29,866 nucleotides of DNA from a virus (taxonomy: Duplodnaviria; Heunggongvirae; Uroviricota; Caudoviricetes), in the IMG/VR virus record IMGVR_UViG_3300028908_000001, positions 64,001-93,866 of that record; one strand, given 5' to 3'. Of the stretch, positions 2,910-22,247 are shown one piece after another. Position 1 is the stretch's first letter. Each line of letters begins with the position of its first letter. The notes under the pieces are model-generated. The model made no database searches. It was not told where the DNA came from and saw only the letters and a list, made by a program, of their open reading frames with translations. The position numbers were made by a program, and so were the translations under genes.

Positions 2910-3890
2910 ATGCCAAAGCTGACGATTAGTGACGGCCGCTTGGTCATACGGGGACCTTCGGGCACACGCTATGTATTCGAGCGCGGGCAGTCCACGGAAG
3001 TTTTAGCAGAGGATGTGGAATACATTATGGCCACCGGGAAGCTATTCTCCTACTGGCAAGAGCAAATGGCCGCGCCGCAAAGGCAAATGCCGCTGCATAT
3101 CATTCGCCATCCGGGTTTGGGCGATAAAGTCTTTGCATTGGCCGCCGCGTGGGCCTTCAAACAAGAACACCCCGACATCACCATCTACTTCGAGACACAC
3201 GATTACTGCAAGAACTGGATTGAACGGGTGCCGTTTGTGCGATTCGGTCGCCCCGCCGAACTCGCTCAAACTGTCGATTTTGACAACATCCCTGCCAATG
3301 CGGGCGACCGCTGTAAGCTCTTCGGCAGGATGCTTGGCGTAGAAGTCAACGACATACGCTTCCCCGTGGAAACCTTTCCTTATTGGCGGCCGCTGCCTGA
3401 ACAGTATGCGGTATTCGCGCCGTGGTGCGGCCCTTGGAAACTGCGTAGTTTGCCACAGGATACCATCAAAGCCGCCCTACGGCACTTTACCGACGTTCCG
3501 CTTGCCATTGTATCAAAGGACCCTTGTCCGTTTCCGTCGTCGCATATCGATTTAACTGGCCCGCGCCAGGGGCCACTGGAGTGCTTGTGGGACATCCTTG
3601 GCAGCGCGGCGGCTGTTATCTCCGTCGATACCGGCATAACGTGGATGGCCGCCGCGTTGGGGAAGCCGACATTAGCATTCTTCGGGCACGTTCCTCCCCA
3701 AGACCGCGCGGCCGCCTGCCACACAGTCTATATCGTCGAGCCGCATATGGACTGCCCGATGTTTCCCTGTGGGGATCACGGTGCACCACCGGCCCCCTGC
3801 GGGGCCACAGAAGAACCCAAGTGCATGAAGGCATACACCCCAGAGGTTGTCCTCTGGAAAATCCGAGAGTTCTTGGCGATGGTGCTATGA
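2910..3890 (+). CDS. Glycosyltransferase family 9 (heptosyltransferase-like) with N-terminal extension
   Basis: GLGDKVFALAAAWAFKQEHP, AVISVDTGITWMAAALGKPTLAFFG and a C-terminal Cys cluster (CPMFPC..C..C) match WaaF/WaaC/WaaQ-type GT9. Confidence 0.88.
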   Translation: MPKLTISDGRLVIRGPSGTRYVFERGQSTEVLAEDVEYIMATGKLFSYWQEQMAAPQRQMPLHIIRHPGLGDKVFALAAAWAFKQEHPDITIYFETHDYCKNWIERVPFVRFGRPAELAQTVDFDNIPANAGDRCKLFGRMLGVEVNDIRFPVETFPYWRPLPEQYAVFAPWCGPWKLRSLPQDTIKAALRHFTDVPLAIVSKDPCPFPSSHIDLTGPRQGPLECLWDILGSAAAVISVDTGITWMAAALGKPTLAFFGHVPPQDRAAACHTVYIVEPHMDCPMFPCGDHGAPPAPCGATEEPKCMKAYTPEVVLWKIREFLAMVL

Positions 3891-4870
3891 ATATCTTATT
3901 TATTAGCCCCACGAGTTACACCGGCGGCGGCCAGCGCTGGCTGCAGATGCTGACTGGTGGCCTGACCGAACGTGGCCACCAGTGCAAGATTATCTTTTCC
4001 GAACGGGGACACCCCGGCACAATCTTCCACAACATCCTGCATGACATGGTGTTGCACCATCTCTGTTACAGGTGTTTCGAGTACGATTGGCCTGCCCGCG
4101 TGGCCGCTGCAATCGATGAGCACGAAATCGATGTGCTGGTTGTAGAACATTCGGAACGCATCGACGAGATAATTCCGTTGTGTAAGCGGCCGCCGCGGGT
4201 TGTGTTTGTAGACCACACTATGTGCCGCGAAACTGTAGACCAACTACGGGCCGTTGACGCTTGGGTTGATGAAGTGGTCTGCGTGTCGCACAAGATAGCA
4301 GCGAAGATAGACTGGTGCCCCGCAAAGGTGATACACAATGCCTGCCCGCCGGTGCCGAAGCTGGGGATAAACGTCCGCGAGTTCATGGGCATCCCCAAGG
4401 ATGCATTCGTGGTTGGCTACATCGGCCGCGTGGACCGCAACAAGACCGTGGACCATCTGGTTGGCGCAGCTATCAATCGCGGCTGGTGGCTGCTGATTGT
4501 CGGCCGCGGGCCGCTAATGGGCCATATCGCCAGCACGCAATACCCCCAGCTCAAAGTATTCCCAACCGATGTCTATTATGTCGGCGATTGGTACGAAGCG
4601 ATGGACGTATTCTGCTTGCCTTCTGAAGAAGAGGGCTTCCCCCTGACACCGTTGGAGGCGTTGTCGTGTGGTTGCCGCGTGGCGATGACACCAGTTTCGG
4701 ACTTCCCTGAGCTGTTCGGCGATAGCATAGCATTCTTCCCTCACAGGAGTGTTGAGTTGGTGGCCGCCGTGGAGAATGCGCCGCCGCCGGATGAGGCGCA
4801 GGCCATCATGCATGAGCAGCTTGGCCTCGACCGGATGATTGAGCAGTACTTGGAAGTTCTGGAGGGCTAA
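3887..4870 (+). CDS. Glycosyltransferase family 4 (GT-B, retaining)
   Basis: Start at ATG 3887 (ATGA overlap). MNILFISP..GGGQRW N-terminus; VGYIGRVDRNK; DVFCLPSEEEGFPLTPLEALSCG (E-x7-E motif). Confidence 0.92.
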   Translation: MNILFISPTSYTGGGQRWLQMLTGGLTERGHQCKIIFSERGHPGTIFHNILHDMVLHHLCYRCFEYDWPARVAAAIDEHEIDVLVVEHSERIDEIIPLCKRPPRVVFVDHTMCRETVDQLRAVDAWVDEVVCVSHKIAAKIDWCPAKVIHNACPPVPKLGINVREFMGIPKDAFVVGYIGRVDRNKTVDHLVGAAINRGWWLLIVGRGPLMGHIASTQYPQLKVFPTDVYYVGDWYEAMDVFCLPSEEEGFPLTPLEALSCGCRVAMTPVSDFPELFGDSIAFFPHRSVELVAAVENAPPPDEAQAIMHEQLGLDRMIEQYLEVLEG

Positions 4871-4873
4871 CAC

Positions 4874-5629
4874 ATGAACTTCGGCATGATCTGGGAAGTA
4901 GACAAGAAACACAAAATTGCCAAAATTACATTCTGGGATGGATTTGTGATGTACATGCCCCATCGGGGCAAGTGGGACTGCGAGGCTTTTCGCAACTACA
5001 ATTCCGTTGTACTGCTCGACCAGTACCGTGCGGGCGATTTCATACACAAAGACGACATAGTAATCGACGCGGGTGCTCATGTGGGCTTGTTCTCGTATTG
5101 GGCCGCGCAGCGCGGGGCCATCATTCACGCATTTGAACCGTATCAGCCCAATATCGAAGCATTTCGGTTACTACTCGGGGAGTATTCGCTCGAAGACAAA
5201 GTGGTGATCGTCGGCCGCGCGTTGAGTGACGAAGGCGGCCGCGTGCCATTCTGGGAGCACCCTGAGAACACGGGTAGCGGGCGCATAACCATCGAGGGCT
5301 TCGGCACCACGGAAGTGGAGGCACAGCGTTTGGATGACTGGGTAGCAGATGCGAAGCTTGAGCACGTTGACTTTATCAAGATAGATACTGAAGGCCACGA
5401 GCGGCAGGTTCTACGCGGCGCGACAGAAACAATTAGGCAGTTTCGGCCTGTGATAGCCGCCTCAGCCTATCACTTCCCCGAAGACGAGAAGGACCTGCCT
5501 CGGCTTGTCAACGACATCGTGGACGGCTATCATATCGTCGTAGAACGCGCGCGGGGCTATTTACCATGCGAGAAAGTGATGTTCGCTGTGCCGGAGGAAC
5601 GTCTTGGAAGCCATAATCCTTGGGCTTGA
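4874..5629 (+). CDS. FkbM-family SAM-dependent methyltransferase
   Basis: VIDAGAHVGLFS, IHAFEP and LDDW..VDFIKIDTEGHERQVLRGA motifs. Confidence 0.92.
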   Translation: MNFGMIWEVDKKHKIAKITFWDGFVMYMPHRGKWDCEAFRNYNSVVLLDQYRAGDFIHKDDIVIDAGAHVGLFSYWAAQRGAIIHAFEPYQPNIEAFRLLLGEYSLEDKVVIVGRALSDEGGRVPFWEHPENTGSGRITIEGFGTTEVEAQRLDDWVADAKLEHVDFIKIDTEGHERQVLRGATETIRQFRPVIAASAYHFPEDEKDLPRLVNDIVDGYHIVVERARGYLPCEKVMFAVPEERLGSHNPWA

Positions 5630-6599
5630 TGGATTGGAACCTTCGTTGGCCCGCCGGTATGATTGTCTTTCGCTGGAGTATCGGGGCTTCACGCAAGCCG
5701 AAACGAGCAAGACGCCCGTGGCGTGGACAGAGTTCGCCACGGGGCTGTCCATGTCAGAACACGGCATAACCGATTTCTGGCATCCTTCCGGCAGGGCATG
5801 GCTGAGCACCGACATCAAGCGGCCTTCCTACTGGTGGAATAGGCTTGACTATACTGTTGGGGTATTGGATGTGCCCGTTGTTACCAGCCCCGCGCGACCA
5901 ATAAACGGCTGGATGGTTGGCGGGCACACCATATATCCAGAGAGCAGGTGGCCCGCCGACCTGCCGGAGATAGACCCCCGCTACGACGCTTACGATTTCC
6001 CCGTGGGTTGGGCGCAGCTTGCTTGGGATCACGAGCCGCTGTGGGCAGAAGTTATCAAACAGATTGATGTTTGTGTTGCCTTCGCGAGGTATCATGTGAG
6101 GACAACGAAGGAAGCGATAGAGAGGCTGATGGCCGCGCGGCCGGTAGACATACTCGTCGTCTACCAGCACATCTCGGACAACATCGGCCATGGGTTCCTC
6201 ACCTGGCATCGTGAAGTATGCGAACAAACCTACTACATGCTGAATGCCCTGGCGCGGTGGCTGTGGAAGACCTATGATCCCGAGCTAAAGATTGTGCTGA
6301 GTGACCACGGGATGGTACCTGTTGAGCAAGATAGCCTTCGCCACCACCGGCGGCAGGTAACAGTAGATGGTCAAGTTACCTGGGAAGGCATGTTGAACGT
6401 GCCGCGCTTCGGGCAATTGTACACCCTCTGTTCGGGGGCGCATTCCGACGACCCGCCCGGGCACTTAGCTTCCAATCATCCGATGTTCCAAGGCACGTGG
6501 CGCTTGCGTGATATAGGCGACGCGATTGTGGGTATACTACAACCGGCGGCCGCCGGGGATGATGTTAGACATCACCTCGCAGCGTTGGGCTATCTATAA
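5604..6599 (+). CDS. Alkaline-phosphatase-superfamily enzyme (type I phosphodiesterase/nucleotide pyrophosphatase-like)
   Basis: TTG start after GGAGG. Motifs IILGLDG, KTPVAWTEFATG (Thr nucleophile region), DNIGH, VLSDHG and a C-terminal HLAALGYL. Confidence 0.82.
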   Translation: MEAIILGLDGLEPSLARRYDCLSLEYRGFTQAETSKTPVAWTEFATGLSMSEHGITDFWHPSGRAWLSTDIKRPSYWWNRLDYTVGVLDVPVVTSPARPINGWMVGGHTIYPESRWPADLPEIDPRYDAYDFPVGWAQLAWDHEPLWAEVIKQIDVCVAFARYHVRTTKEAIERLMAARPVDILVVYQHISDNIGHGFLTWHREVCEQTYYMLNALARWLWKTYDPELKIVLSDHGMVPVEQDSLRHHRRQVTVDGQVTWEGMLNVPRFGQLYTLCSGAHSDDPPGHLASNHPMFQGTWRLRDIGDAIVGILQPAAAGDDVRHHLAALGYL

Positions 6600-6620: not shown

Positions 6621-7046
6621 ATGGGCAGTGACTCTATGCGGGCGTTTCTGGAAGAGAAAGAAGCCTATGAAATATTCAACCTCGCAGCGTGGCCCCTATG
6701 GAATGATGCTTGTGCATTGATTGTGCTGCGCTGCGATGAGAAGAGATGCAAGCTCATACAACAGCTTGCCAAAGGCTCAGTCAAAACCCATCTTGTAGAT
6801 AGCCACACGATTGTGCTTTACAAATACGATTGGGCGTTGGAACTGTATAAAGCAGCGCAGCAAATAGAAGACCCGCGCTTGCGAGTGGCTCTTGTCGCCC
6901 TCCTCACAGGGGGAGCACCCCGAAGCATTCACGACACGCTGGAATGGATTGAGGACGAGAGCGAAGAAGCATTAGAAATAGCCCTGCTCGAAGCGGGGCT
7001 ACTAAGCGAGGAGCATGGCAATGGTCAAGGTAATACTGGAGTATAA
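6621..7046 (+). CDS. Hypothetical protein
   Basis: GGAGG RBS at 6608; it fills the gap inside the operon. No family recognised. Confidence 0.7.
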   Translation: MGSDSMRAFLEEKEAYEIFNLAAWPLWNDACALIVLRCDEKRCKLIQQLAKGSVKTHLVDSHTIVLYKYDWALELYKAAQQIEDPRLRVALVALLTGGAPRSIHDTLEWIEDESEEALEIALLEAGLLSEEHGNGQGNTGV

Positions 7047-7968
7047 TGGCCACCGCAGCGAACAAGTCGTAGAACCAATCATGGAGTTCCGCGACAAGCG
7101 TTTAGCTCTTCCTTCCGACTTCTTGGAAGCCCGCACGGTGGCCGTCGTCCGCGACGGCGGCCTCGGCGACGTCATCATGCTCACGGCGGCCATCCATCGT
7201 ATGGTGGAACTCTATCCCCACCTGCGCGTTGACTACTACGTCAACCCCATCTACGTGGAACTCTTCAAAGGTGACCCCTATATTGCTGATTGTCGCCCGC
7301 TGCAGGCCCTCGACAAGCGGTTCTATGATCTTGTGCTCGACTGCCGCCAGGTCGTGGAGAAGAGTCACCATGCGAAAGAAATAGACCGCGTTACGCTGTT
7401 CTCGATGCGACTTATCGGCGAAGAACCCCGCGAAGGCCCACGACTCTTCTTGCAGCCCCTGACTGGCGAACGTCATTGGCATGTGGACTCACTACTACAA
7501 CAAGCCACGGGCAAGCGCGTGGCCATTGCCCCTCGGTCAGCCTCTCCCTATCGCGATTGGCCCCATGCCAACGAACTGGCACGGCTCATAAAACAAAGCG
7601 GTAATACCCCCTACATCATAGATCATCACGATGAGAAGCTGGCCGCCGTGCCGGAGGCTATCCCTGCGAAGCTCGATCCTCTGCAGATAGCGTGGTTCCT
7701 TAAAGAAGTAGACGTGCTGGTCAGTACCGACACTGGCGTCTACCATGTGGCGGGGGCCGTCGAAGATGGGCCGTTCATGGTGGTTCTCTTCGGAAGTATC
7801 TTCCCGCCGCGCTTGCGCATGGCATGGTACAAGAACTACACAGCGCTGTTTGACCCGTCTTTGCCGTGTTTGGGATGTGATATGAGTCCCAAGTGTAAGC
7901 CGCCCGCGCCGTGCTTGGCGAACATCTCTGCGGAGCGCGTGTGGGAGACCATCGCGGGGCGGCTATAG
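7015..7968 (+). CDS. Glycosyltransferase family 9 (heptosyltransferase-like), second copy
   Basis: RDGGLGDVIMLTAAIHRMVELYP; DVLVSTDTGVYHVAGAV; C-terminal CLGC..C..PCL..ISAERVW. Confidence 0.9.
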   Translation: MAMVKVILEYNGHRSEQVVEPIMEFRDKRLALPSDFLEARTVAVVRDGGLGDVIMLTAAIHRMVELYPHLRVDYYVNPIYVELFKGDPYIADCRPLQALDKRFYDLVLDCRQVVEKSHHAKEIDRVTLFSMRLIGEEPREGPRLFLQPLTGERHWHVDSLLQQATGKRVAIAPRSASPYRDWPHANELARLIKQSGNTPYIIDHHDEKLAAVPEAIPAKLDPLQIAWFLKEVDVLVSTDTGVYHVAGAVEDGPFMVVLFGSIFPPRLRMAWYKNYTALFDPSLPCLGCDMSPKCKPPAPCLANISAERVWETIAGRL

Positions 7969-9122: not shown

Positions 9123-9160
9123 TCACCCACACTTAGCATATCCACATAGCGGGCACTTCA
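9123..9160 (-). repeat. Imperfect direct repeat, copy 1 (functional RNR 3' end)
   Basis: Pairs with 8765-8802. Confidence 0.9.
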
Positions 9161-12100
9161 TACATCCTTCTGAGTGTTCCATCGGCCCGCCGCATTCTGG
9201 GCAAGCACCATTCTTGCGCTCTTCGATCTGTACTCGCTGGCCCACGGCGGCCTCCAAGGCCTGTCCAAAAGCATCAGCACACGACAATACCTGGCGGCCA
9301 CCGGGTCCCCACGCGGGCATGTGACACGATATGCCACGCAGGTGCTTGATGATGTGCTCGGGGGCCACGCCTGAACGCAGGGCCAGCGAAATCATGCGGG
9401 CCAGTGCCTCCATCTGTGACGAAGCACATCCGCCAGCCTTCCCGATATTTCCAAAGACCTCAAAGGGCTTACTTTCCTCATCGAAGTTGATGGTGACGTA
9501 TAGTGTCCCGCATCCGGTAGTTACGGCCCGCGTTTCGCCCCTCAAGACATGGGGCCGCTTGCGCGGGCCTTCTTGCTTCTTCTCTTCTTTCTTCTTGCCC
9601 GTGGTCAGCACCTGCCCCGCGCGGCAACCATCCCTGTACACCGTGATACCCTTGCAGCCCAGATTGTATGCCAGCATGAATGCTTTGGCAACATCATCCT
9701 CGGAAGCATCATGCGGCATGTTGATTGTTTTGGAGCAAGCCGCATCTGTGTACTTCTGAAACGCCGCTTGGATACGCACATGCTGCTCTGGTGGCACTTC
9801 GTGGGCCGTCACGAAGAGTTTCTGTATGTCTTCGGGGACTTCTGATAACCCACGAACGGTGCCGCGAGCGGCCACCTTCTTCATCAATTCCTCAGAATAG
9901 AAGCCGCGGGCGCGGGCTATCTCCACAAACAGCGGATTGACTTCCACCAGCGTCTCGCCATCGAGAACATGCTTCTCATACGCCACGGCGAAGAGGGGTT
10001 CGATACCGCTTGAGCAGCCCGCGATGATGGAGATGCTGCCCGTCGGGGCTATCGTTGTACATGCCGCATTCCTCATCGGGCGGCCATCTTTTGCCCAAAC
10101 ACTTTCTTCCCACAGCGGGAAGTTGCCGCGCTCTTGAGCCAATGCGGTAGAAGCATGGTGAGCCGTATTCTGGACGTGGCTCATAATCTTCTCGGCCCAC
10201 TCGATAGCCTCGGGGCTATCATAGGCCACGCCCAGTTTAATCAAAGCATCGGCGAAGCCCATGATACCGAGGCCGATCTTGCGACTGGCCCGCGTGGCCT
10301 CCTCTATCTCCGGTAGCGGATACTTGTTGACGTCTATCACGTTGTCCAAGAACCGCACAGCCAGCGCAACTGCTTGGGCCAGTGCATACCAGTCGATGTG
10401 ATCCTCATGCACGAACTTGGATATATCTATTGAGCCGAGGTTGCACGACTCGTAGGGCCGCAGCGGTTGTTCCGCGCAGTTCCCAGTGACTATGCCATTG
10501 AATATGAGGCTGTGATATGTGGGCTGAGTAACGTCGTAGACCGACTCCTCGCCGATATAAGTAATTTCTGCAATCTCATCGCTGAACCGCTGGCGCTTGC
10601 GCAAGACTTTTCCTTGCCGCCAAGCCTCGTACTTTTCTTTGTGATGTGGCAACCGCCATCCTACAAGCTCGGCGAAGCGGGTGCGCGACTCACCATCAAT
10701 AATTAGCTCATACCAAGCAGCACATTGGTATGCCTTGGAGCCGCCGTGGCCATCAGGCAATAGGTGCTCACCAGCATCCCTGCGCTTGTAAACGCGGCTA
10801 AAAATGCCGAAGTTGGCCAGCAGCTTCTGCACATCATGCAACAAAGAGGGGCGCGTGCTAGATAGGCGGCAAGAACAGCGCGTTCCATCACTTGCGCCTA
10901 TTACGGTGCCATCGGTAGCAAATAGCCCATGCAAGTAGCCTATCACGCATTCGCGCGTTCCTTGCCATATCAGCTTCGGTACATGGAATTTGCAATCCTC
11001 GGTGACGCCAATGGAAGCGAGGGCGCGGCTTAATCTCTTAGAAGCCCACATCCACTTGTCGCGCTGGTCCTGTATTTGCTTGCGCGGCGACTGTTCGGGG
11101 ACCAATTGTTTGATAGCCGCTTCTATATCGGGGGCCAACACCTTCTTGGCACCCCACAAGCCGATGTTGACGCGCCCCGACTTATCCCAGTGGCCGTCGC
11201 CAGTTAGCACGCCTACAAGCAGCCCCAATTCATAATTGCCGAGCTGCCCCCAAGCGCCTTCGCCAGATTGGATGAGTAATTCATCCCCCACGCGAAGCTC
11301 GGAGAGCCGCAGTTTGCCGCGCGAAGTATAGAACTCGTGCCATGCTGTAGCCTTAATCTCATACCCCGCCTTGGTACGCACGCGAAACACAGGAGCCTTC
11401 TTGGCAGTCATGAATGCAGGCGTGGCTTCTTGCAAGACAACCCCTCGTTCTCCATCGATGGTCCGCCGGTCAACAGCCACGCGCACCGCTTCTCCCGACT
11501 CATACAGCTCCTTCATAGGGACAAGGCCCCTCTCGGTGTGCAGCAGTGTATCACCCGTGACACATGGGTTAGTGCTTTCGATGGGATGATTGGGCAGAGT
11601 ATGCGCAGCATTTACGCGGTCGATGAACAGCAGCCCCGGCTCGCCCATTGCCCAAGCATTGTGCACTATCTTATTCCATACCTCGCGGGCCTTTAGTTTC
11701 TTTACAGCCTTCCCCGTGCGCGGATTGATAAGTTCATATTCTCGATCCTCCTCGACGGCAGCCATAAACTCGTCTGTAATGGCTACCGAGATATTGAAGT
11801 TTGATAGCCGCCCGTCTTCCATCTTGGCGTCTATGAACTCCAAGATGTCGGGATGGTCCACGCGAAGTATGCCCATATTGGCCCCGCGTCGTTTACCACC
11901 TTGCTTAATGGTCTGCGTGGCCGCATCATACGCCTCCAGGAAGGAGACTGGCCCGGAAGCCACACCCTTGGTTGAGCGAACAATGTCACCGCGCGGCCGC
12001 AGCCGAGAGAACGAAAAGCCTGTGTTGTGTATTACCACCAAACCGTTCTGACCCGCGACATAGTTATTGTATGTATCTACCGTGAAGTCGTAGAAGTACT

Positions 12101-13781
12101 CGGCTGGTGCTTGGGGTACCTCCACGGCCTTAACGCGCCGTAATGCCGGGATCAGCCGCAGCAGGGCTTCTACGCGCCGTTGGCTGGCCGGAGAAAGACG
12201 CCGTGTTGACAATATCTGTCCCAGCATCGCAGTGGCTTGCGCGGGGGAAACACGGTTCGTTAAACGCCAGCGCTGGACATACAGCGTTTCGCCAGCGACA
12301 TCTACACCCTTGCGCCAAGCGTCCACACAGTGAGTACTTATGCCCACCTCCGCCAACAGCTTTTCAACATCACTAAAATCCCACGTGATGTTCAGACCGG
12401 CAGTGGGGCTGCTTAGCCAAGCTTGCAGGCGGCGGAGACGCTGTGAATGCTGTATATATCTGCCAGACAAGTCATAGAGCCGCTGTAGCATATCGGTTCC
12501 AGACACATATATTTCATACGTCGAGCGCCAATGCGCTTTTCGCGGTTGACGACATCGCGCCCGCGTCCTAATGCCGCAGAGGCTGAACAAGGCCGCAAGC
12601 TGCTGGGCAAGTTTAGCACTGGCCGTAGCATAGACAAACTCTGCCTTAGACTCGGAAACAAAACCATCGGAGTCAAAGAGACCCGCGATGAACGTGGCAA
12701 TGGCTTCGCGACTCTGGAGGACAATCTTGGGAACCTCGACTTTTTCGTACTTCTCGCCCGGGCTAAGCCCGGTGTCGTGCGCCACGCACCGCACAAAATC
12801 TTGGTTGAGGCATGTAATGTAGAATACGCCATTCTTATCACGCTGTATAGCATAGCTGTGCCCCGCCAAAAGCGATAAAATCTGCTGCAGCTTCTTGATG
12901 GGTCCCCCATCCGCATCATACAGCCGCAGCCGCAAGCTTTGCTTGCCACTCAATCGGTGCCAACCCAAGTTGCCATTGCCGATGAAAAAGCCCAACAGAT
13001 AGGCATAATCAGGCGTGATATGCGGAACGTCAAGTAAATGCCCTATAGCTGCGATGGCGGTTTCGTTCGGAGCCACGACCCAATCGCCAGCCGCGAGCTC
13101 GGCAGCAGTCTTGGTGGCTACACGCCCGTTTTCAAAAACAAAAAACGGGTGCCAAGAGGATGTAAGCACGGACAGCCCACCGTTGAAGCGTACTAATCTC
13201 TGCTCCTCGGGCGGTACTCGGAAACGCCAAACATGGGTTATAGCAGCGGGCTTGAATGTGTTGTCTTGCGCATCGAAAGCGACAGTAGACAGCGCGCCGC
13301 TTGACACGCTGTAGCATTCTCCGGTGGGGGCCTCAACAGGCTCGGCTCCTCTGTGAATGGCATCCTCCACCACATCGCGGATCGGGCATAGTCCCGCAGT
13401 GTTAGTAAAGACGATGGCATCGCCGCTGATGCACCCGCCGCCCCCTTGATGGATCAGCGCCGCTTGTTTCATAGTCTCGAAGATACCATCCAGCGAGTCA
13501 TCGATGGGAAGTACGAAACAAGCGGATAGAAGCCCTATCTCGGTGCCCGCGTTCATCAACGTGGGGCTATTCGGCAAGAACTTCAGCGAAGACATTAGTT
13601 CATAGAACTTGGAGGCCCACTCGTCGGGGTCGTTGCCGTACCTTTCTTCAGCCGCCGCCACGGCGCGGGCCACCCGCCAGAACATCTCATCAGGAGTTTC
13701 TACAACGTTACCTTCCTCGTCGCGCAGGAGATACCGCTTCTCAAGCAGACGCAAAGCATTCTGGGACAAAGAAGCCCCCAT
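9123..13781 (-). CDS. nrdJ: Class II (adenosylcobalamin-dependent) ribonucleotide reductase containing two inteins; about 720 aa after splicing
   Basis: FLPNSPTLMNAG, LSACFV, GGKRRGANM, TNP|CAEQPL..ESCNLGS and TIAPTGSIS motifs, a C-terminal TSCPD-type domain and a Zn ribbon; no ATP cone. The start at 13781 follows GGAGG. Confidence 0.95.
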   Translation of the reverse strand: MGASLSQNALRLLEKRYLLRDEEGNVVETPDEMFWRVARAVAAAEERYGNDPDEWASKFYELMSSLKFLPNSPTLMNAGTEIGLLSACFVLPIDDSLDGIFETMKQAALIHQGGGGCISGDAIVFTNTAGLCPIRDVVEDAIHRGAEPVEAPTGECYSVSSGALSTVAFDAQDNTFKPAAITHVWRFRVPPEEQRLVRFNGGLSVLTSSWHPFFVFENGRVATKTAAELAAGDWVVAPNETAIAAIGHLLDVPHITPDYAYLLGFFIGNGNLGWHRLSGKQSLRLRLYDADGGPIKKLQQILSLLAGHSYAIQRDKNGVFYITCLNQDFVRCVAHDTGLSPGEKYEKVEVPKIVLQSREAIATFIAGLFDSDGFVSESKAEFVYATASAKLAQQLAALFSLCGIRTRARCRQPRKAHWRSTYEIYVSGTDMLQRLYDLSGRYIQHSQRLRRLQAWLSSPTAGLNITWDFSDVEKLLAEVGISTHCVDAWRKGVDVAGETLYVQRWRLTNRVSPAQATAMLGQILSTRRLSPASQRRVEALLRLIPALRRVKAVEVPQAPAEYFYDFTVDTYNNYVAGQNGLVVIHNTGFSFSRLRPRGDIVRSTKGVASGPVSFLEAYDAATQTIKQGGKRRGANMGILRVDHPDILEFIDAKMEDGRLSNFNISVAITDEFMAAVEEDREYELINPRTGKAVKKLKAREVWNKIVHNAWAMGEPGLLFIDRVNAAHTLPNHPIESTNPCVTGDTLLHTERGLVPMKELYESGEAVRVAVDRRTIDGERGVVLQEATPAFMTAKKAPVFRVRTKAGYEIKATAWHEFYTSRGKLRLSELRVGDELLIQSGEGAWGQLGNYELGLLVGVLTGDGHWDKSGRVNIGLWGAKKVLAPDIEAAIKQLVPEQSPRKQIQDQRDKWMWASKRLSRALASIGVTEDCKFHVPKLIWQGTRECVIGYLHGLFATDGTVIGASDGTRCSCRLSSTRPSLLHDVQKLLANFGIFSRVYKRRDAGEHLLPDGHGGSKAYQCAAWYELIIDGESRTRFAELVGWRLPHHKEKYEAWRQGKVLRKRQRFSDEIAEITYIGEESVYDVTQPTYHSLIFNGIVTGNCAEQPLRPYESCNLGSIDISKFVHEDHIDWYALAQAVALAVRFLDNVIDVNKYPLPEIEEATRASRKIGLGIMGFADALIKLGVAYDSPEAIEWAEKIMSHVQNTAHHASTALAQERGNFPLWEESVWAKDGRPMRNAACTTIAPTGSISIIAGCSSGIEPLFAVAYEKHVLDGETLVEVNPLFVEIARARGFYSEELMKKVAARGTVRGLSEVPEDIQKLFVTAHEVPPEQHVRIQAAFQKYTDAACSKTINMPHDASEDDVAKAFMLAYNLGCKGITVYRDGCRAGQVLTTGKKKEEKKQEGPRKRPHVLRGETRAVTTGCGTLYVTINFDEESKPFEVFGNIGKAGGCASSQMEALARMISLALRSGVAPEHIIKHLRGISCHMPAWGPGGRQVLSCADAFGQALEAAVGQRVQIEERKNGACPECGGPMEHSEGCMKCPLCGYAKCG
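10479..11564 (-). mobile_element. Intein 2 in RNR (362 aa, LAGLIDADG homing endonuclease) at the NP|C active-site position
   Basis: Begins CVTGDTLLHT and ends IVTGN followed by Cys. Endonuclease motifs LLVGVLTGDG and YLHGLFATDG. Confidence 0.93.
12024..13433 (-). mobile_element. Intein 1 in RNR (470 aa, LAGLIDADG-type) at the GGG|TG position
   Basis: Begins CISGDAIV and ends FYDFTV..NNYVAG..VVIHN followed by Thr. Motifs YLLGFFIGNG and FIAGLFDSDG. Confidence 0.93.
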
Positions 13782-13814
13782 CGACAAAGCCTCCAATCTA
13801 CAGGGGAATAGCGA

Positions 13815-15195: not shown

Positions 15196-16563
15196 TCAAT
15201 AGTACCATTCCGCAGACCAAGGCCGCACGTCTACATGCATCCAAGTCTTCGCAATACCCCTGCCGCCTTTGGGATGATAGCTGCGCAAATATGCGACAAC
15301 ATCTCTGATTGGCACACCATGTATCTTGATGTCAGCCGCCATGCCCGCCATGTGGAAGCTCTTGGAAACACCACCGATGAACTTGTTGTAGTGATACGGC
15401 CGGAAACCGCTGATGATGGTTACCGGCTGCTCATAGTGGTTGCGAATGTCTTCCAGCAACTCCACCAAGCGAGGGTCTATGCGACAGTAGTCGGGGTAGC
15501 GCTCGCCCTTGTAGACGTAGGTCCAGCGTTCTGTAGCGTGATGGCCCGCGTGGGCCAAGAACCTCGCGCGGCTACCATAAGCAAGAAACTCCTTGCCGTG
15601 GAAGTGGTCTGACAGCCGCGCAGTTATTACATCCGCCGTCCTCAGTAGGCCTTTATTGTATTGTGGCCACGGGTTGTAGTAAGGCTGCCCCGGATTGGCA
15701 AGTGCCCCACCTTCGTACTTAAGAAGCTGCGCCCGCGGGAACTTCACCAGCTTGTAGCCCGCCGGTATTTCTGGCTCTGCAACGTGGTGGCGATACTCAT
15801 CGGGGTAGTCCTTCGTGTAGATATGCAGCACCGGCGGCTCCTTACTCCAGTCTATCTGCCCAATGTCCAATTCAATATCAGCGTCCCCCAAGAATTCTCG
15901 CAAACGCACATACGTCTCAGTCTTCCCTGTATGAGGATCGCGTATGAGGTAGCCCGCAACTCGCTCTTCGTCGCGTTCTCCGTCGTTGATAGCCACCATC
16001 AACGGTTTTACAATCTCTGGTCCGCGCATGGTCTCGACCTCCAGCAGGTTGCGCCAACGGTTCCATACTTGCCAGAAGACTTTGGCCCCGCTGATATGCG
16101 GGGTGTACATATATTGTGCCGCCGTGGCGGCATTTTCTGGTGTTACAGTTCCATCTGATAGCCGCCAGGGCTTGCCGACCTTCTTGGCCGCCGCAGGCTT
16201 GTACCAAGTACCCACAGCCTTCGCGCAGGAGAAGATTTGGTTGCGGACACCTTTGAATCTAGGAATGTCGTGGCTATCGGTGGCCCCGAAGCCGAGGGTA
16301 TAGTCAAGGGCACGTTGCCAGCCACGGCCGCCAGCACGGCGAGTAAGAAAACTTTGCTCCTTTTCGGCGGTTACCAAGAGGAAACGCTGGTCCACATCGT
16401 ATTGCCGCGCGGCTTCCTCTATCCACTCTGCGAACTGCGGCATATCTTGCAGCCGTGGGCTATTGATAGCCCGCAAGAACTCCTTTGTTGAGAATGTGGG
16501 ATTGTAGCCCCACACTTCATCGTTCTCGCAAATCCTATTGGGGTTCCATTGCTTGGAAGCCAC
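15196..16563 (-). CDS. Modular endolysin: N-terminal putative lysozyme-like domain, stalk domain, C-terminal peptidase M15
   Basis: C-terminus IISGFR..N..IGGVSKSFHMAGMAADI..HVDVR is peptidase M15. N-terminal LLVTAEKEQS..GF..NQI..NAATAAQYMYTPH resembles a cell-wall hydrolase domain (less certain). Confidence 0.85.
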   Translation of the reverse strand: MASKQWNPNRICENDEVWGYNPTFSTKEFLRAINSPRLQDMPQFAEWIEEAARQYDVDQRFLLVTAEKEQSFLTRRAGGRGWQRALDYTLGFGATDSHDIPRFKGVRNQIFSCAKAVGTWYKPAAAKKVGKPWRLSDGTVTPENAATAAQYMYTPHISGAKVFWQVWNRWRNLLEVETMRGPEIVKPLMVAINDGERDEERVAGYLIRDPHTGKTETYVRLREFLGDADIELDIGQIDWSKEPPVLHIYTKDYPDEYRHHVAEPEIPAGYKLVKFPRAQLLKYEGGALANPGQPYYNPWPQYNKGLLRTADVITARLSDHFHGKEFLAYGSRARFLAHAGHHATERWTYVYKGERYPDYCRIDPRLVELLEDIRNHYEQPVTIISGFRPYHYNKFIGGVSKSFHMAGMAADIKIHGVPIRDVVAYLRSYHPKGGRGIAKTWMHVDVRPWSAEWYY

Positions 16564-16566
16564 CGG

Positions 16567-17142
16567 CTACACCCCTAGCTCTTTTGTTATATGCCGCCAG
16601 CCGTCCACGTTTACATCATAATAGCGCAACTGGGCGGATGCCGCCATAGACCTATCGGCCACACTGTCGCCTATCACAACAGTACGCGGCGACGCTAAAT
16701 CTATCCCTAGCATCTCTTCGGCCGCCGCCAACATGCCCGTGCGTGGCTTGCGCCACGTGCATCCTTGCTCCCCAGTGTGGGTACAGACAAACACATGAAT
16801 ATCATAGGGCAGCGCCAGCGGCTCGAACTTCATATAGAGGTCGCCGCGCGGCCGCTTCTCTACAGCATAATATATCGTATCCGACACGCCGAGAACATCA
16901 CACCATTGTGATACAACCTCCAGCATAACTGCCTCGAATGCATCTAAGTCTAACAGCCCGCGACCGATACAAGACTGATTCGTCACACACACCAGTTGCC
17001 AACCGGCCAACCCTGCGCCATCAAGCGCTTCGACTGCTTCAGGTGTGATTTTGACTTGGTTGTGGCTAACCACATAGTACAGCCCTCGGCTGCTGCATTC
17101 TATGAGGGTGTCATCCCTATCAAAGAAAATAGCGGGTCTCAT
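16567..17142 (-). CDS. gmhB: GmhB-like HAD phosphatase (heptose-1,7-bisphosphate phosphatase family)
   Basis: AIFFDRDDTL, VCVTNQSCIGRG, CTH...C.WRKP.TGML and VIGDSVAD motifs. GGAGGT RBS precedes ATG 17142. Confidence 0.85.
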   Translation of the reverse strand: MRPAIFFDRDDTLIECSSRGLYYVVSHNQVKITPEAVEALDGAGLAGWQLVCVTNQSCIGRGLLDLDAFEAVMLEVVSQWCDVLGVSDTIYYAVEKRPRGDLYMKFEPLALPYDIHVFVCTHTGEQGCTWRKPRTGMLAAAEEMLGIDLASPRTVVIGDSVADRSMAASAQLRYYDVNVDGWRHITKELGV

Positions 17143-18023
17143 GATATGTACCTCCGTTCCCACAACCCCGAGACATACTGGTGCGCGAACCCATGGGCGT
17201 CGTTGACGTAGCCCAGCAGCGCTTCGGGGCTACCGTCGCCACTGGTAACCCACGCTTGCAAGAAAGCCGCCGAGAACGCATCACCAGCACCGGAATATGC
17301 CCACGGCGGGCAATCAACAGCCACCACGGGGACACTATCGACAAGCTCGCCGTCTACATAGAGCGTGGTGGGCTGCCGACCATGCGTTACTACGACGGCT
17401 TTGGTCTTTCTCATCCAATCCTCGCCGATGGCCTCGCGCCACGACATGAATTCTTCCTCATTTAGCTTGATGATAGCCTGCGCGGCCCACTCGTCCAAGT
17501 CTGCTGGTGGTTCTCTGCTGCCATCCCACAACAATTTGGCATCCGGTGTCATTAAATAATCCCTTGCCCGTCTCCAAACATCGGCCATGCCATATCCATG
17601 ATCCACCATTAAGACACCATCATAGGGCGGGCTTAGATGCCGTGGGGAGAATGGAAGCTCGTGAAATGCTTCCAACACAACAGTAGGACTTGGCGTGTCG
17701 ATCCTGCACGGTTTCTTGCCTTGTATACGCATCCGCAAGGCCGGCACACCCGACACGGGCACAGGAACCGTATGAACCTGTGCATGAAACGCACACATCC
17801 GCTGTATCTTTGTGCGCCAAAAAGAGATACCACCGAGAGGAGCCAAGAGAGACACGCGGGCCTCTGGAATTATCTGCTTAAGACACCAAGCAGCGTTGCC
17901 AGCCCCGCCGAGGGCATAGCGCGGGCTATCACACTTATACGTTGGCATATCCTCGCGGGTTGTTAGCCGCGCGGCTTCCAGTAAAACGTCGAGGAAGAAA
18001 TCACCCATGACTAGATAGCGCAC
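17139..18023 (-). CDS. PfkB/ribokinase-family sugar kinase resembling the HldE/RfaE heptose-7-phosphate kinase domain
   Basis: LVMGDFFLD, ALGGAGNAA, VLMVDHGYG, KLNEEEF, VVVTHG and SGAGDAF follow the RfaE kinase layout. GTG start at 18023; overlaps gmhB by 4 nt. Confidence 0.8.
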   Translation of the reverse strand: MRYLVMGDFFLDVLLEAARLTTREDMPTYKCDSPRYALGGAGNAAWCLKQIIPEARVSLLAPLGGISFWRTKIQRMCAFHAQVHTVPVPVSGVPALRMRIQGKKPCRIDTPSPTVVLEAFHELPFSPRHLSPPYDGVLMVDHGYGMADVWRRARDYLMTPDAKLLWDGSREPPADLDEWAAQAIIKLNEEEFMSWREAIGEDWMRKTKAVVVTHGRQPTTLYVDGELVDSVPVVAVDCPPWAYSGAGDAFSAAFLQAWVTSGDGSPEALLGYVNDAHGFAHQYVSGLWERRYIS

Positions 18024-21055: not shown

Positions 21056-21270
21056 GGTATCACCGTCCTGCCTTGAGCATCGCGGCCATCCGCCACATGA
21101 TCTTCCAACGATTCCAGCAACTCGCGAACGTACTTTGTTTGCTCAGATGAAAGCTGTTTCATGCTGGTGAGGCCGAAATGCCAATAGATAATGTCGTGGA
21201 GATATTCGTCGGCCGCCGGGCCAGCAAGCTGCCGCGCTATGCCATATATCATACGCAGCGACTCAGGCAC
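21040..21270 (-). CDS. Small helical protein, possibly Mu GemA/gp16-like
   Basis: IYGIARQL..EYLHDII..FGLTSMKQLS..Q pattern; weak resemblance only. Confidence 0.45.
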   Translation of the reverse strand: MPESLRMIYGIARQLAGPAADEYLHDIIYWHFGLTSMKQLSSEQTKYVRELLESLEDHVADGRDAQGRTVIPWTRA

Positions 21271-22036
21271 GGCCTATCTCCTCCTCTTCAATCCGCCGCA
21301 TGACAGTCCAATCGCCGCATATTGTGTCGTACTCGCAGCGCACTTTGCCAGTCGAAAAGCTCTTATCAGGCGGCTTGCCCGCCGGGCATTCAACAACTGG
21401 GGGTGCTACTTTGGCGGCCGCGCAATCTTGTATCTGCTTGATGCGATGAAGAATGCGCTGCCAGGTCTCTTCGTCCCATGCCACCCGCACTTCGCCCACG
21501 AAGTTCTCGTCGCCGCGGCGAATAACATGTATGATAGCTTCGTCGGTCCAGTAACCATTGGCGCGGGCCAAATGCAAGTAACAATGAGTCTGTTCGCGCC
21601 ACTTGAGCCAGTAGTAGCCCAAGTCCTTGGCCCACGGGCTGATGCTCTTACACTCAAGTACAATCCAATGACCATTGTAAAGCACGAGGGCATCGATGTT
21701 GCCGCGAATGCCGAGGCCGCAGGGGTCTTCCAAGCGCAACTCGGTGTACACTTCTTGGAAGACGCCTTGTTCCTTCGCTAAGGATAGCAGCCGCGCGTAG
21801 CGGTCGTGGACATCAGTACCTGCTTCGCCGTAGCGGTTCTCGTCGAAAGTCAACGGCCGCGCGGGCAGACCGAGTAGCTTGAATACCTGCTTGCGCGGGC
21901 AATCTGTAACACCCGAAGGGCTGAGCCAGCCCGGTGTCCGCCGCGGCTTGTACTCAACAGATAGCAGCTTGCCCAAGACCTCTGCTTCGGCGGCTGGCCG
22001 AAAGTCCATATCTTCAGGTATCGTTATCTTCCGCAT
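21263..22036 (-). CDS. Cas4-like PD-(D/E)XK exonuclease
   Basis: SPS..DCPRK, GTDVH, IRGNIDAL..VLECKS, QxxxY and C-terminal C..CEYDTIC motifs. Confidence 0.85.
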   Translation of the reverse strand: MRKITIPEDMDFRPAAEAEVLGKLLSVEYKPRRTPGWLSPSGVTDCPRKQVFKLLGLPARPLTFDENRYGEAGTDVHDRYARLLSLAKEQGVFQEVYTELRLEDPCGLGIRGNIDALVLYNGHWIVLECKSISPWAKDLGYYWLKWREQTHCYLHLARANGYWTDEAIIHVIRRGDENFVGEVRVAWDEETWQRILHRIKQIQDCAAAKVAPPVVECPAGKPPDKSFSTGKVRCEYDTICGDWTVMRRIEEEEIGRA

Positions 22037-22247
22037 CGGCGATCTCCAAGCACAGTTTTTGCCCCGCTGCAGACCACGACATTCCGGCGAAGCGATAGCG
22101 CATAGTGTGGCCACATCTCACACAACGCAACAGACATCCGAAATTGTCCAGCAGAACCGATGGCGATATTCCGTCAGCCTTAGGTAAACGACCGCCGCGG
22201 GCTGTCAATTGCAACACCATTGATCTACCACACTCAGGACATTTCAT
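22014..22247 (-). CDS. Small zinc-finger protein (MKCPECG...CVRCG)
   Basis: Two CxxC pairs; start inferred at 22247. Confidence 0.65.
   Translation of the reverse strand: MKCPECGRSMVLQLTARGGRLPKADGISPSVLLDNFGCLLRCVRCGHTMRYRFAGMSWSAAGQKLCLEIADAEDNDT

Follow-up and report, generated by a model that had tools for sequence, protein, structure and literature searches.

The window analysed here, a 29,866-bp stretch of DNA that forms the final part of a 93,866-bp IMG/VR virus record with direct terminal repeats and a completeness rating of 100%, encodes on its − strand a PfkB-family sugar-phosphate kinase and, directly behind it, a GmhB-like phosphatase. Combined with a nucleotidyltransferase gene elsewhere in the same genome and with three glycosyltransferase family 9 (GT9) genes embedded in its structural operons, this gene pair leads us to favor, by a modest degree, an HldE-type supply line for nucleoside diphosphate (NDP)-heptose that depends on host GmhA and feeds the phage's own GT9 enzymes, with virion proteins as the most likely target and the host envelope as a less likely one. 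The sequences show the genes themselves, their homology at the level of families, core catalytic motifs that are intact and a co-occurrence in relatives; the sugar, the nucleotide, the timing of the pathway and the acceptor are what we infer from the genes described below. Positions are those of the window unless the genome or another locus (L) is named.

A kinase gene and a phosphatase gene are coupled in one operon

The open reading frame (ORF) of the kinase (17139..18023, −; 294 aa) starts with a GTG at 18023, 2 nt past the stop of the preceding ORF and with the Shine-Dalgarno sequence GAGGGGGAG 5 nt upstream, and it ends with a TGA at 17139. That of the phosphatase (16567..17142, −; 191 aa) runs from an ATG at 17142, which is preceded by GGAGG, to a stop at 16567. 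Given that the phosphatase ATG overlaps the kinase TGA (ATGA), the two genes are therefore translationally coupled. The next gene, for a two-domain lysin-like protein with a conserved N-domain and an M15 peptidase domain (15196..16563, −; PF08291, 62 bits), starts 3 nt past the phosphatase stop, and the spacing of the upstream ORF, kinase, phosphatase and lysin therefore indicates one tight four-gene operon.

The kinase is an HldE-domain-I/HldA-like protein. Its match to PfkB (PF00294) reaches 34.6 bits with a cut-off of 25.8, and that to rfaE_dom_I (TIGR02198) is full-length but weak (21.4 bits, E 1.2e-4), with ribose-1-P and nucleoside kinases as second-rank NCBIfam matches. The sequence is highly isolated: a word-index search gave one distant match, tblastn against 50,697 deposited phage records gave none, and an exhaustive HMMER search over 1.84 billion representatives returned only 16. 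Nearest among them are P0005 (34% identity), which comes from a complete 86-kb phage, and P0006 and P0007, each of which matches rfaE_dom_I at 1e-30; P0006 adjoins a nucleotidyltransferase scoring 147 bits to rfaE_dom_II, and P0007 sits in a sugar cluster with a GmhA scoring 197 bits. When a profile of the kinase family (alignment A1) was compared with the PDB, the Burkholderia heptose-7-phosphate kinase HldA (4e84) was matched at 6e-60 and the next PfkB protein at 2e-18, with canonical HldE-like sequences being included in both the profile and the multiple sequence alignment. An AlphaFold2 model of the kinase (predicted local distance difference test, pLDDT, 80.6; predicted template modeling score 0.85) retrieved only HldA as its top 6 PDB matches and only HldE as its top 30 Swiss-Prot matches in Foldseek, the margin of HldA over YihV being small. 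The catalytic motifs GG (GGAGN), NxxE (N188-E191) and GAGD are kept and are invariant in alignment A1. Judged by family profile and predicted fold, the kinase appears nearer to HldA/HldE than to other PfkB kinases.

The phosphatase belongs to the HAD-IIIA group, with 85.7 bits to TIGR01656, just above the cut-off of 84.15. It scored 85.3 bits (E 3.6e-24) to GmhB PRK08942 and 49.5 bits to hisB_Nterm, 36 fewer than to GmhB, and its top Pfam match is PNK3P (32.5 bits). By sequence, its best five PDB matches are four named GmhB entries (4pnh, 4e-12) and one unnamed HAD protein, compared with 9.5e-5 for HisB-N, and its named database relatives, with identities of ≤33%, are all called GmhB but one. 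HAD motifs I–IV are kept (D8, D10, N55-Q56-S57, R131-K132-P133, G158-D159 and D163; alignments A6/A7), motif I reading FFDRDDT, that is, DRDDT for DRDGT, and the zinc loop reads C-T-H-x5-C-T-W versus C-x-H-x5-C-x-C in GmhB. In the AlphaFold2 model (pLDDT 92.4) an insertion takes the form of extra beta strands before the zinc loop, and Foldseek matched this model to HisB-N (2fpr, 1e-10) and GmhB (3l8h, 1.5e-10), with PNKP also among the matches. An earlier note on this DNA had described the coupled pair on the − arm and a diverged phosphatase with DRDDT, Trp for one zinc-binding Cys and an insertion of about 25 aa; both genes lie as described, with the ATGA overlap, and each of the three deviations is seen in the sequence.

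The genome supplies a nucleotidyltransferase outside the window

GmhA, the nucleotidyltransferase and HldD had been reported missing from the window, and they are indeed not there, but the rest of the genome provides one of them. A stand-alone, HldE-domain-II-like and cytidylyltransferase-like nucleotidyltransferase of 147 aa is encoded at genome 12080-12523 (−), outside the window, where it has a helicase on one side and a Dam-type methylase on the other. Among families, rfaE_dom_II fits it best (91.6 bits, E 4e-26, versus 41.6 bits for TagD), and it matches PF01467 at 59.6 bits. The HxGH motif is intact (H-A-G-H, residues 13-16), the C-terminal motif is too diverged for confident use of the STTR5 arginine rule for cytidine or uridine triphosphate (CTP/UTP) use, and the best PDB match is 5x9q, which we take to be the Burkholderia heptose-1-phosphate adenylyltransferase HldC. 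By contrast, neither gmhA nor hldD turned up: searching the complete genome at E<=1 gave nothing for SIS_2 (GmhA), Epimerase (HldD) or Cupin_2, whereas the positive controls were matched.

Combined, these genes suggest the following route. Host GmhA would make heptose-7-phosphate from sedoheptulose-7-phosphate, the phage kinase would act at the anomeric position to make heptose-1,7-bisphosphate, the coupled phage phosphatase would take off the 7-phosphate, and the phage nucleotidyltransferase would yield NDP-heptose by the HldE-like (beta, ADP-type) route, which would stay in the D,D form if host HldD does not act. The phage would thus code for three of the four steps leading from sedoheptulose-7-phosphate to NDP-heptose. 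Given that GmhA and HldD are not encoded, the host would therefore have to provide the first step and, where it occurs, epimerisation from D,D to L,D. The activated sugar would then be used by three GT9 enzymes, one in the head module and two in a cassette behind the tail genes, and GT9, GT4 and FkbM enzymes may build a short, possibly methylated, heptose-containing glycan on virion proteins during lytic growth.

GT9 genes lie within structural operons

Three GT9 genes of this phage score above the PF01075 gathering score of 22. Two of them had already been noted on the + arm of the window, 9.2-14 kb from the kinase: one is the first gene of the cassette after the tail genes (2910..3890, +; 30.0 bits), and the other closes the same run of genes (7015..7968, +; 26.8 bits, heptsyl_trn_I E 1.2e-10). 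The third lies in the head module (genome 48890-49825, L005:8890-9825; 35.2 bits). GGLGD and VDTG motifs in the first GT9 align to the catalytic Asp and donor site of WaaC, and the second keeps GGLGD and TDTG; the catalytic Asp and the donor motif DTG are conserved in all three genes. A profile of five phage GT9s matched WaaC (8e-10), the GT9 family entry 3tov and WaaF (1.5e-8) in the PDB, the aligned region including both the catalytic GD and the donor motif, and it matched the protein heptosyltransferase TibC weakly (E 2.6e-3).

Four genes separate the two GT9 genes of the window. A GT4 glycosyltransferase gene (3887..4870, +; PF13692 56.5 bits, PF00534 50.3 bits) comes first, its ATG, read from the sequence at 3887, overlapping the GT9 stop (ATGA). 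It is followed by genes for an FkbM-family methyltransferase (4874..5629, +; PF05050 74.7 bits, TIGR01444 96.4 bits), for an alkaline-phosphatase-superfamily enzyme of the type I phosphodiesterase/nucleotide pyrophosphatase family (5604..6599, +; PF01663 41.7 bits), whose Atlas feature matches are PF01663 clusters (0.91-0.92), and for a 141-aa protein (6621..7046, +) matching only phrog_4127, of unknown function, at E 1.3e-4. Membrane or flippase genes were not seen among the family matches of the cassette. Given that the transferases belong to late structural operons and that the replication arm holds the supply genes, use of the sugar on virion proteins in lytic growth is therefore favored.

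Five of six phage GT9s share a C-terminal four-cysteine motif located after DTG and outside the WaaC-aligned region (roughly C-x2-5-C-x7-13-C-x3-9-C), namely those at 2910-3890, 7015-7968 and L005:8890-9825 and two from the related phage G001 described below (L025:14432-15532 and L026:12015-13037). It is reminiscent of the iron finger of TibC and may be a metal finger of that kind. Directly upstream of the third GT9, the head module encodes a 157-aa protein (genome 48420-48893, L005:8420-8893, +) with a Ser/Thr/Lys/Arg-rich tail of ~40 residues, a candidate for the putative glycan acceptor. A 320-aa ORF ahead of the cassette (1945-2907) was considered as a hidden glycosyltransferase; it had no family match, and its Atlas leads pointed to tail proteins. 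A bolder version of the scheme, in which the GmhB-containing trio and the three Cys4-finger GT9s O-heptosylate head and tail proteins as a self-contained, late protein-heptosylation system of this uncultured phage lineage, is offered as a tentative and rather doubtful extension.

The supply genes and GT9 genes co-occur in related phages

No nucleotide-level relatives of the phage were found among the 50,697 deposited phage records (megablast, 8 kb), and scanning IMG/VR with the kinase, TerL or the head GT9 as single proteins gave none. Two informative relatives, G001 and G003, were found only with two-sequence alignments, G001 by way of a lysin alignment; a metagenome scan added only a near-identical strain of G001. 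As the nearest complete relative, G001 (86,019 bp) encodes a kinase of 32% identity, again directly upstream of the lysin, and a nucleotidyltransferase of 39% identity, again adjoining the helicase. Its GmhB-like phosphatase is encoded at a different locus, with the canonical DRDGT, the complete zinc loop C-P-H-x5-C-A-C and an insertion of ~40 aa at the same site as that of the window protein. It has three GT9 genes above the Pfam threshold, of which the ortholog of the GT9 at 2910-3890 (46% identity, E 5e-69) is again followed by a GT4 ortholog (39% identity).

G003 is a partial relative (43.8 kb, 50% complete) with the helicase-nucleotidyltransferase pair, a GT9, a GT4 ortholog (42% identity) and a PfkB kinase that lies within a glycosyltransferase cluster and matches the HldE-like profile with an hhalign probability of 99.2%. 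G003 adds to this cluster RmlD-like and short-chain dehydrogenase/reductase-type epimerase/dehydratase genes and a C5 cytosine methylase gene (L040:10335-14275 and L041:380-1540), and the glycan cassette therefore varies within the lineage. In G002, a distant fragment rated 49% complete, no GT9, PfkB or HAD-IIIA gene was found. The order of kinase then lysin is common to the window phage and G001 (lysin L007:10894-12243), two phages that otherwise share few genes, and the 190-aa N-domain of the lysin is 52% identical between them, with C-terminal peptidase domains that differ (M15_3 versus M15_4).

Co-occurrence of kinase, GmhB and GT9 genes, which the earlier note had named as a test of its proposal, is thus present in the only complete relative, together with the nucleotidyltransferase and three GT9 genes, and the G003 kinase extends it by lying inside a GT9/GT4 cluster. 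That note had further proposed that the phage boosts or re-routes NDP-heptose synthesis to feed its own transferases. The pathway part of this proposal is strengthened by the nucleotidyltransferase, the third GT9 and the co-occurrence; the sugar, the gain to the phage and the end use, be it a virion coat or receptor masking, are parts that we infer. Boosting and re-routing both stay conditional, and heptose is the presumed sugar, since all three supply enzymes score low and deviate at conserved motifs.

Observations that weigh against an NDP-heptose line

A number of observations argue against the assignment and have to be set beside it. None of the three supply enzymes reaches its equivalog cut-off: the kinase scored 21.4 vs 345 bits (TIGR02198), the phosphatase 85.3 vs 178 bits (GmhB) and the nucleotidyltransferase 91.6 vs 181.5 bits (TIGR02199). 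The kinase sequence taken alone gave no significant match in the PDB, the substrate-side lobe of its model is poorly resolved (pLDDT 42-65), and the HldE stretch R(I/L)SPEAPVPV is replaced by RLTTREDMPTYK, with a similar ED(A)PTYK at this position in the G001 kinase. In the phosphatase, the fourth zinc ligand is lost (Trp for Cys), ~25-27 extra residues lie directly before the zinc loop, near the specificity loop, and the fold fits HisB-N as well as GmhB. In the nucleotidyltransferase, ASGG aligns to the STT of Salmonella HldE, so that the (F/L)xxGxSTT of the family is not kept.

The relatives and the missing steps add to these points. No GmhA, HldD or cupin was found in either complete genome (the window phage and G001), and supply of the GmhA product by the host is an assumption. 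A cupin as replacement for GmhA was rejected, neither genome having a Cupin_2 match. The G001 nucleotidyltransferase (L028:3974-4690, −) reads TPNH, in which the first His of HxGH and its Gly are missing, and the G003 kinase (L040:18974-19864, +) reads GAGN for the catalytic GAGD; judged by these residues, the copies in the relatives may be inactive, decaying or repurposed. Finally, the genomes that show the co-occurrence, two of them complete and one a fragment, all belong to a single lineage and do not count as independent events.

Alternative explanations

The alternative that survives best, although we regard it as unlikely, keeps the supply line and moves the acceptor to the host envelope, be it the lipopolysaccharide (LPS) inner core, another heptose-bearing glycan or an S-layer. 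Surface glycans would then be boosted or remodelled in infection or lysogeny, blocking superinfection or the sticking of progeny to debris, an outcome to which we give the same low credence. Envelope modification is the classic reading of cyanophage 'LPS genes', and phage surface-modifying genes often adjoin tail-fiber genes, as in P-SSM2. The GT9 profile is nearer to the LPS enzymes WaaC and WaaF (8e-10 and 1.5e-8) than to TibC (2.6e-3), and the integrase in the genome makes lysogenic conversion possible. However, replication-arm operons house the supply genes and one GT9 belongs to the head module, a placement that suggests lytic rather than prophage expression, and core remodelling hardly accounts for three separate GT9s scattered through structural operons in two phages. 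Membrane or flippase genes, moreover, were not seen in the cassette.

That the same chemical logic serves a sugar other than glycero-manno-heptose, in parallel to the arabinose-5-phosphate (Ara5P) route of RB69/DLP3-type phages, is less probable again. The families present, a PfkB kinase, a HAD-IIIA phosphatase with zinc loop and a cytidylyltransferase-like enzyme, correspond exactly to those of HldE, GmhB and HldC, the nearest relatives of the kinase occur alongside GmhA, and the GT9 consumers keep the ADP-heptose donor motif. A different sugar would be in line with GmhA not being found in either complete genome, with scores far under the equivalog cut-offs and with the deviations in the lid motif of the kinase, in the specificity loop of the phosphatase (Trp and insertion) and in the C-terminal motif of the nucleotidyltransferase. 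Phage arabinose synthesis offers a precedent of the same logic, but it uses an APH-type kinase and an NTP_transferase-type enzyme (PMC13326640).

Much less credible is transfer of the activated sugar to phage DNA, where a glycosylated hydroxymethyl- or hydroxy-pyrimidine would protect against restriction. The window phage genome has no match to PF00303 (ThyA-like), PF12851 (TET/JBP) or PF00145 (C5 methylase), G001 and G003 have neither a ThyA-like gene nor a TET gene, and the transferases sit in structural operons. We know of no GT9 enzyme that serves as a DNA glycosyltransferase, although the cassette GT4 does resemble BshA/MshA-like GT-B enzymes that serve in this way, and a C5 cytosine methylase adjoins the kinase in G003. 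The precedent here is a metagenomic cluster that heptosylates 5-hydroxymethylcytosine (5hmC) (bioRxiv 10.1101/2023.12.21.572611).

We give equally little credence to an incidental adjacency, in which the phosphatase is a PNKP-like 3'-phosphatase or a histidinol-phosphatase-type HAD protein and the kinase a generic sugar or nucleoside kinase. Such a case could draw on the PNK3P match (32.5 bits), on Foldseek placing HisB-N first with PNKP among the matches, on the ribose-1-P and nucleoside kinases ranking second for the kinase, and on the position of both genes among replication and repair genes. By contrast, the zinc loop and RKP signature are specific to GmhB/HisB and not found in PNKP, GmhB exceeds HisB by 36 bits and in the PDB comparison (4e-12 vs 9.5e-5), the two genes are translationally coupled, and relatives likewise carry the matching set of nucleotidyltransferase and GT9s. 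A MurNAc (N-acetylmuramic acid)-recycling trio like AmgK/MurU/MupP, considered because a lysin gene follows, was rejected on family mismatch, these three being an APH kinase, an NTP_transferase and a HAD-IA protein.

Other features of the genome

The genome is that of a tailed phage, with TerL, portal and minor tail protein genes, and it further encodes a primase-helicase, a sliding-clamp-like processivity factor, a UvsX-like recombinase, RusA, a ClpP-like protease, a long ribonucleotide reductase and an integrase. The large subunit of the ribonucleotide reductase (9123-13796, −; 1557 aa) has PHROG matches only at residues 12-120 and about 1100-1556, and the nearly 1000 residues inserted between these parts may be inteins or homing elements. 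Among the replication genes, a 283-aa protein (21263-22114, −) weakly matches a Cas4-like nuclease (TIGR00372, E 4.5e-7). A radical SAM/SPASM enzyme, scoring 49.9 and 33.1 bits, and another, weak radical-SAM match are encoded in the early + arm (L004:6172-7266 and L004:13058-14011, both +). Three further genes (L003:4305-5201, L003:16884-18332 and L003:9236-11521, all −) encode an SPFH/Band-7 protein, a Mg-chelatase/MoxR-type AAA+ ATPase that adjoins the integrase, and a 761-aa protein carrying MarR/TrmB-type helix-turn-helix (HTH) domains.

Comparison with known systems and implications

With the HldA/GmhB/HldC heptose pathway the window phage shares the same three enzyme families, a split architecture, the core motifs and GT9 consumers with GD and DTG. 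It differs in lacking GmhA and HldD, in having its genes spread over three loci and in enzymes that fall below equivalog thresholds. Compared with the canonical enzymes, the kinase deviates in its lid motif, GmhB is set apart by DRDDT, the Trp for Cys and the ~25-aa insertion, and the nucleotidyltransferase has ASGG for xSTT.

Phage-encoded heptose modules as such are already known, and the present one is not new in kind. With a kinase relative as the query, tblastn matched 33 of the 50,697 phage records, mostly T4-like cyanophages. P-SSM2 (PSSM2_309-313) has a nucleotidyltransferase, kinase, GmhA and epimerase between tail-fiber genes, and S-CAM1, S-CAM3, S-T4 and P-TIM68 are further T4-like cyanophages with heptose clusters. 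These phages and the window phage have in common a phage-encoded, split HldE-type kinase and nucleotidyltransferase, located beside tail-fiber genes in the cyanophages. The cyanophages, however, have GmhA and an epimerase and no annotated GmhB, whereas the window phage shows the reverse; its supply genes are unlinked, and it has three GT9s. When Salmonella GmhB was the query, only 9 of the 50,697 records were matched, all from uncultured phages, several of them short contigs, and none from a cultured phage. What is unusual in the window phage is the viral GmhB, the absence of GmhA, the scattered genes and the three GT9s inside structural operons. According to two commentaries on Tang et al. 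(Science 2024), ADP-heptose is formed in vitro by viral heptose enzymes, and viruses lack the phosphatase step (PMC11461863, PMC11573728).

For the GT9 side, two kinds of system can be compared. The phage GT9s share a GT9-like GT-B fold with TibC and Aah, which gives a working model for virion heptosylation; they differ in matching TibC weakly (E 2.6e-3), less well than WaaC, and in being ~320 aa rather than 406 aa long. TibC and Aah are bacterial autotransporter heptosyltransferases that transfer heptose from ADP-heptose onto protein serines; a Cys4 iron finger, dodecameric assembly and a Ser-rich protein acceptor characterize this group. Mycobacteriophage virion glycosylation cassettes have glycosyltransferase and methyltransferase genes in or near structural operons, the presumed targets being capsid or tail proteins; they are not known to carry heptose supply genes or a GT9, and they belong to another host group.

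On the supply side, the metagenomic phage cluster 'contig 53' uses a HAD-kinase fusion, a cytidylyltransferase and a GT-B enzyme to put heptose on 5hmC (bioRxiv 10.1101/2023.12.21.572611), and RB69-type phages make NDP-arabinose by the logic of kinase, phosphatase and nucleotidyltransferase (PMC13326640). In these two cases, as in the window phage, a phage kinase, a HAD phosphatase and a nucleotidyltransferase supply an unusual NDP-sugar to a GT-B transferase. They differ from it by APH-type kinases, by genes for 5hmC or 5-hydroxycytosine (5hoC), none of which was found in the window phage, and by transferases other than GT9.

As a gene inventory, the system adds to a pattern already known and does not open a new one, and its value is that of a clean case, complete at genome level, on which virion heptosylation and a viral GmhB can be tested. 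If the enzymes work as read, the window phage and its relative show that the phosphatase step of NDP-heptose synthesis can be virus-encoded, although a recent cross-kingdom survey reported this step as absent from viruses. If the supply line does feed the phage GT9s, the link of heptose supply genes to GT9s embedded in head and tail operons would make a testable case for heptose-decorated virions, and should protein heptosylation be its end use, the virion coat would carry heptose as a sugar, for which no viral example has been described. Such a heptose coat would bear on adsorption, on stability in hydrothermal settings and on the commonness of heptose genes in environmental phages.

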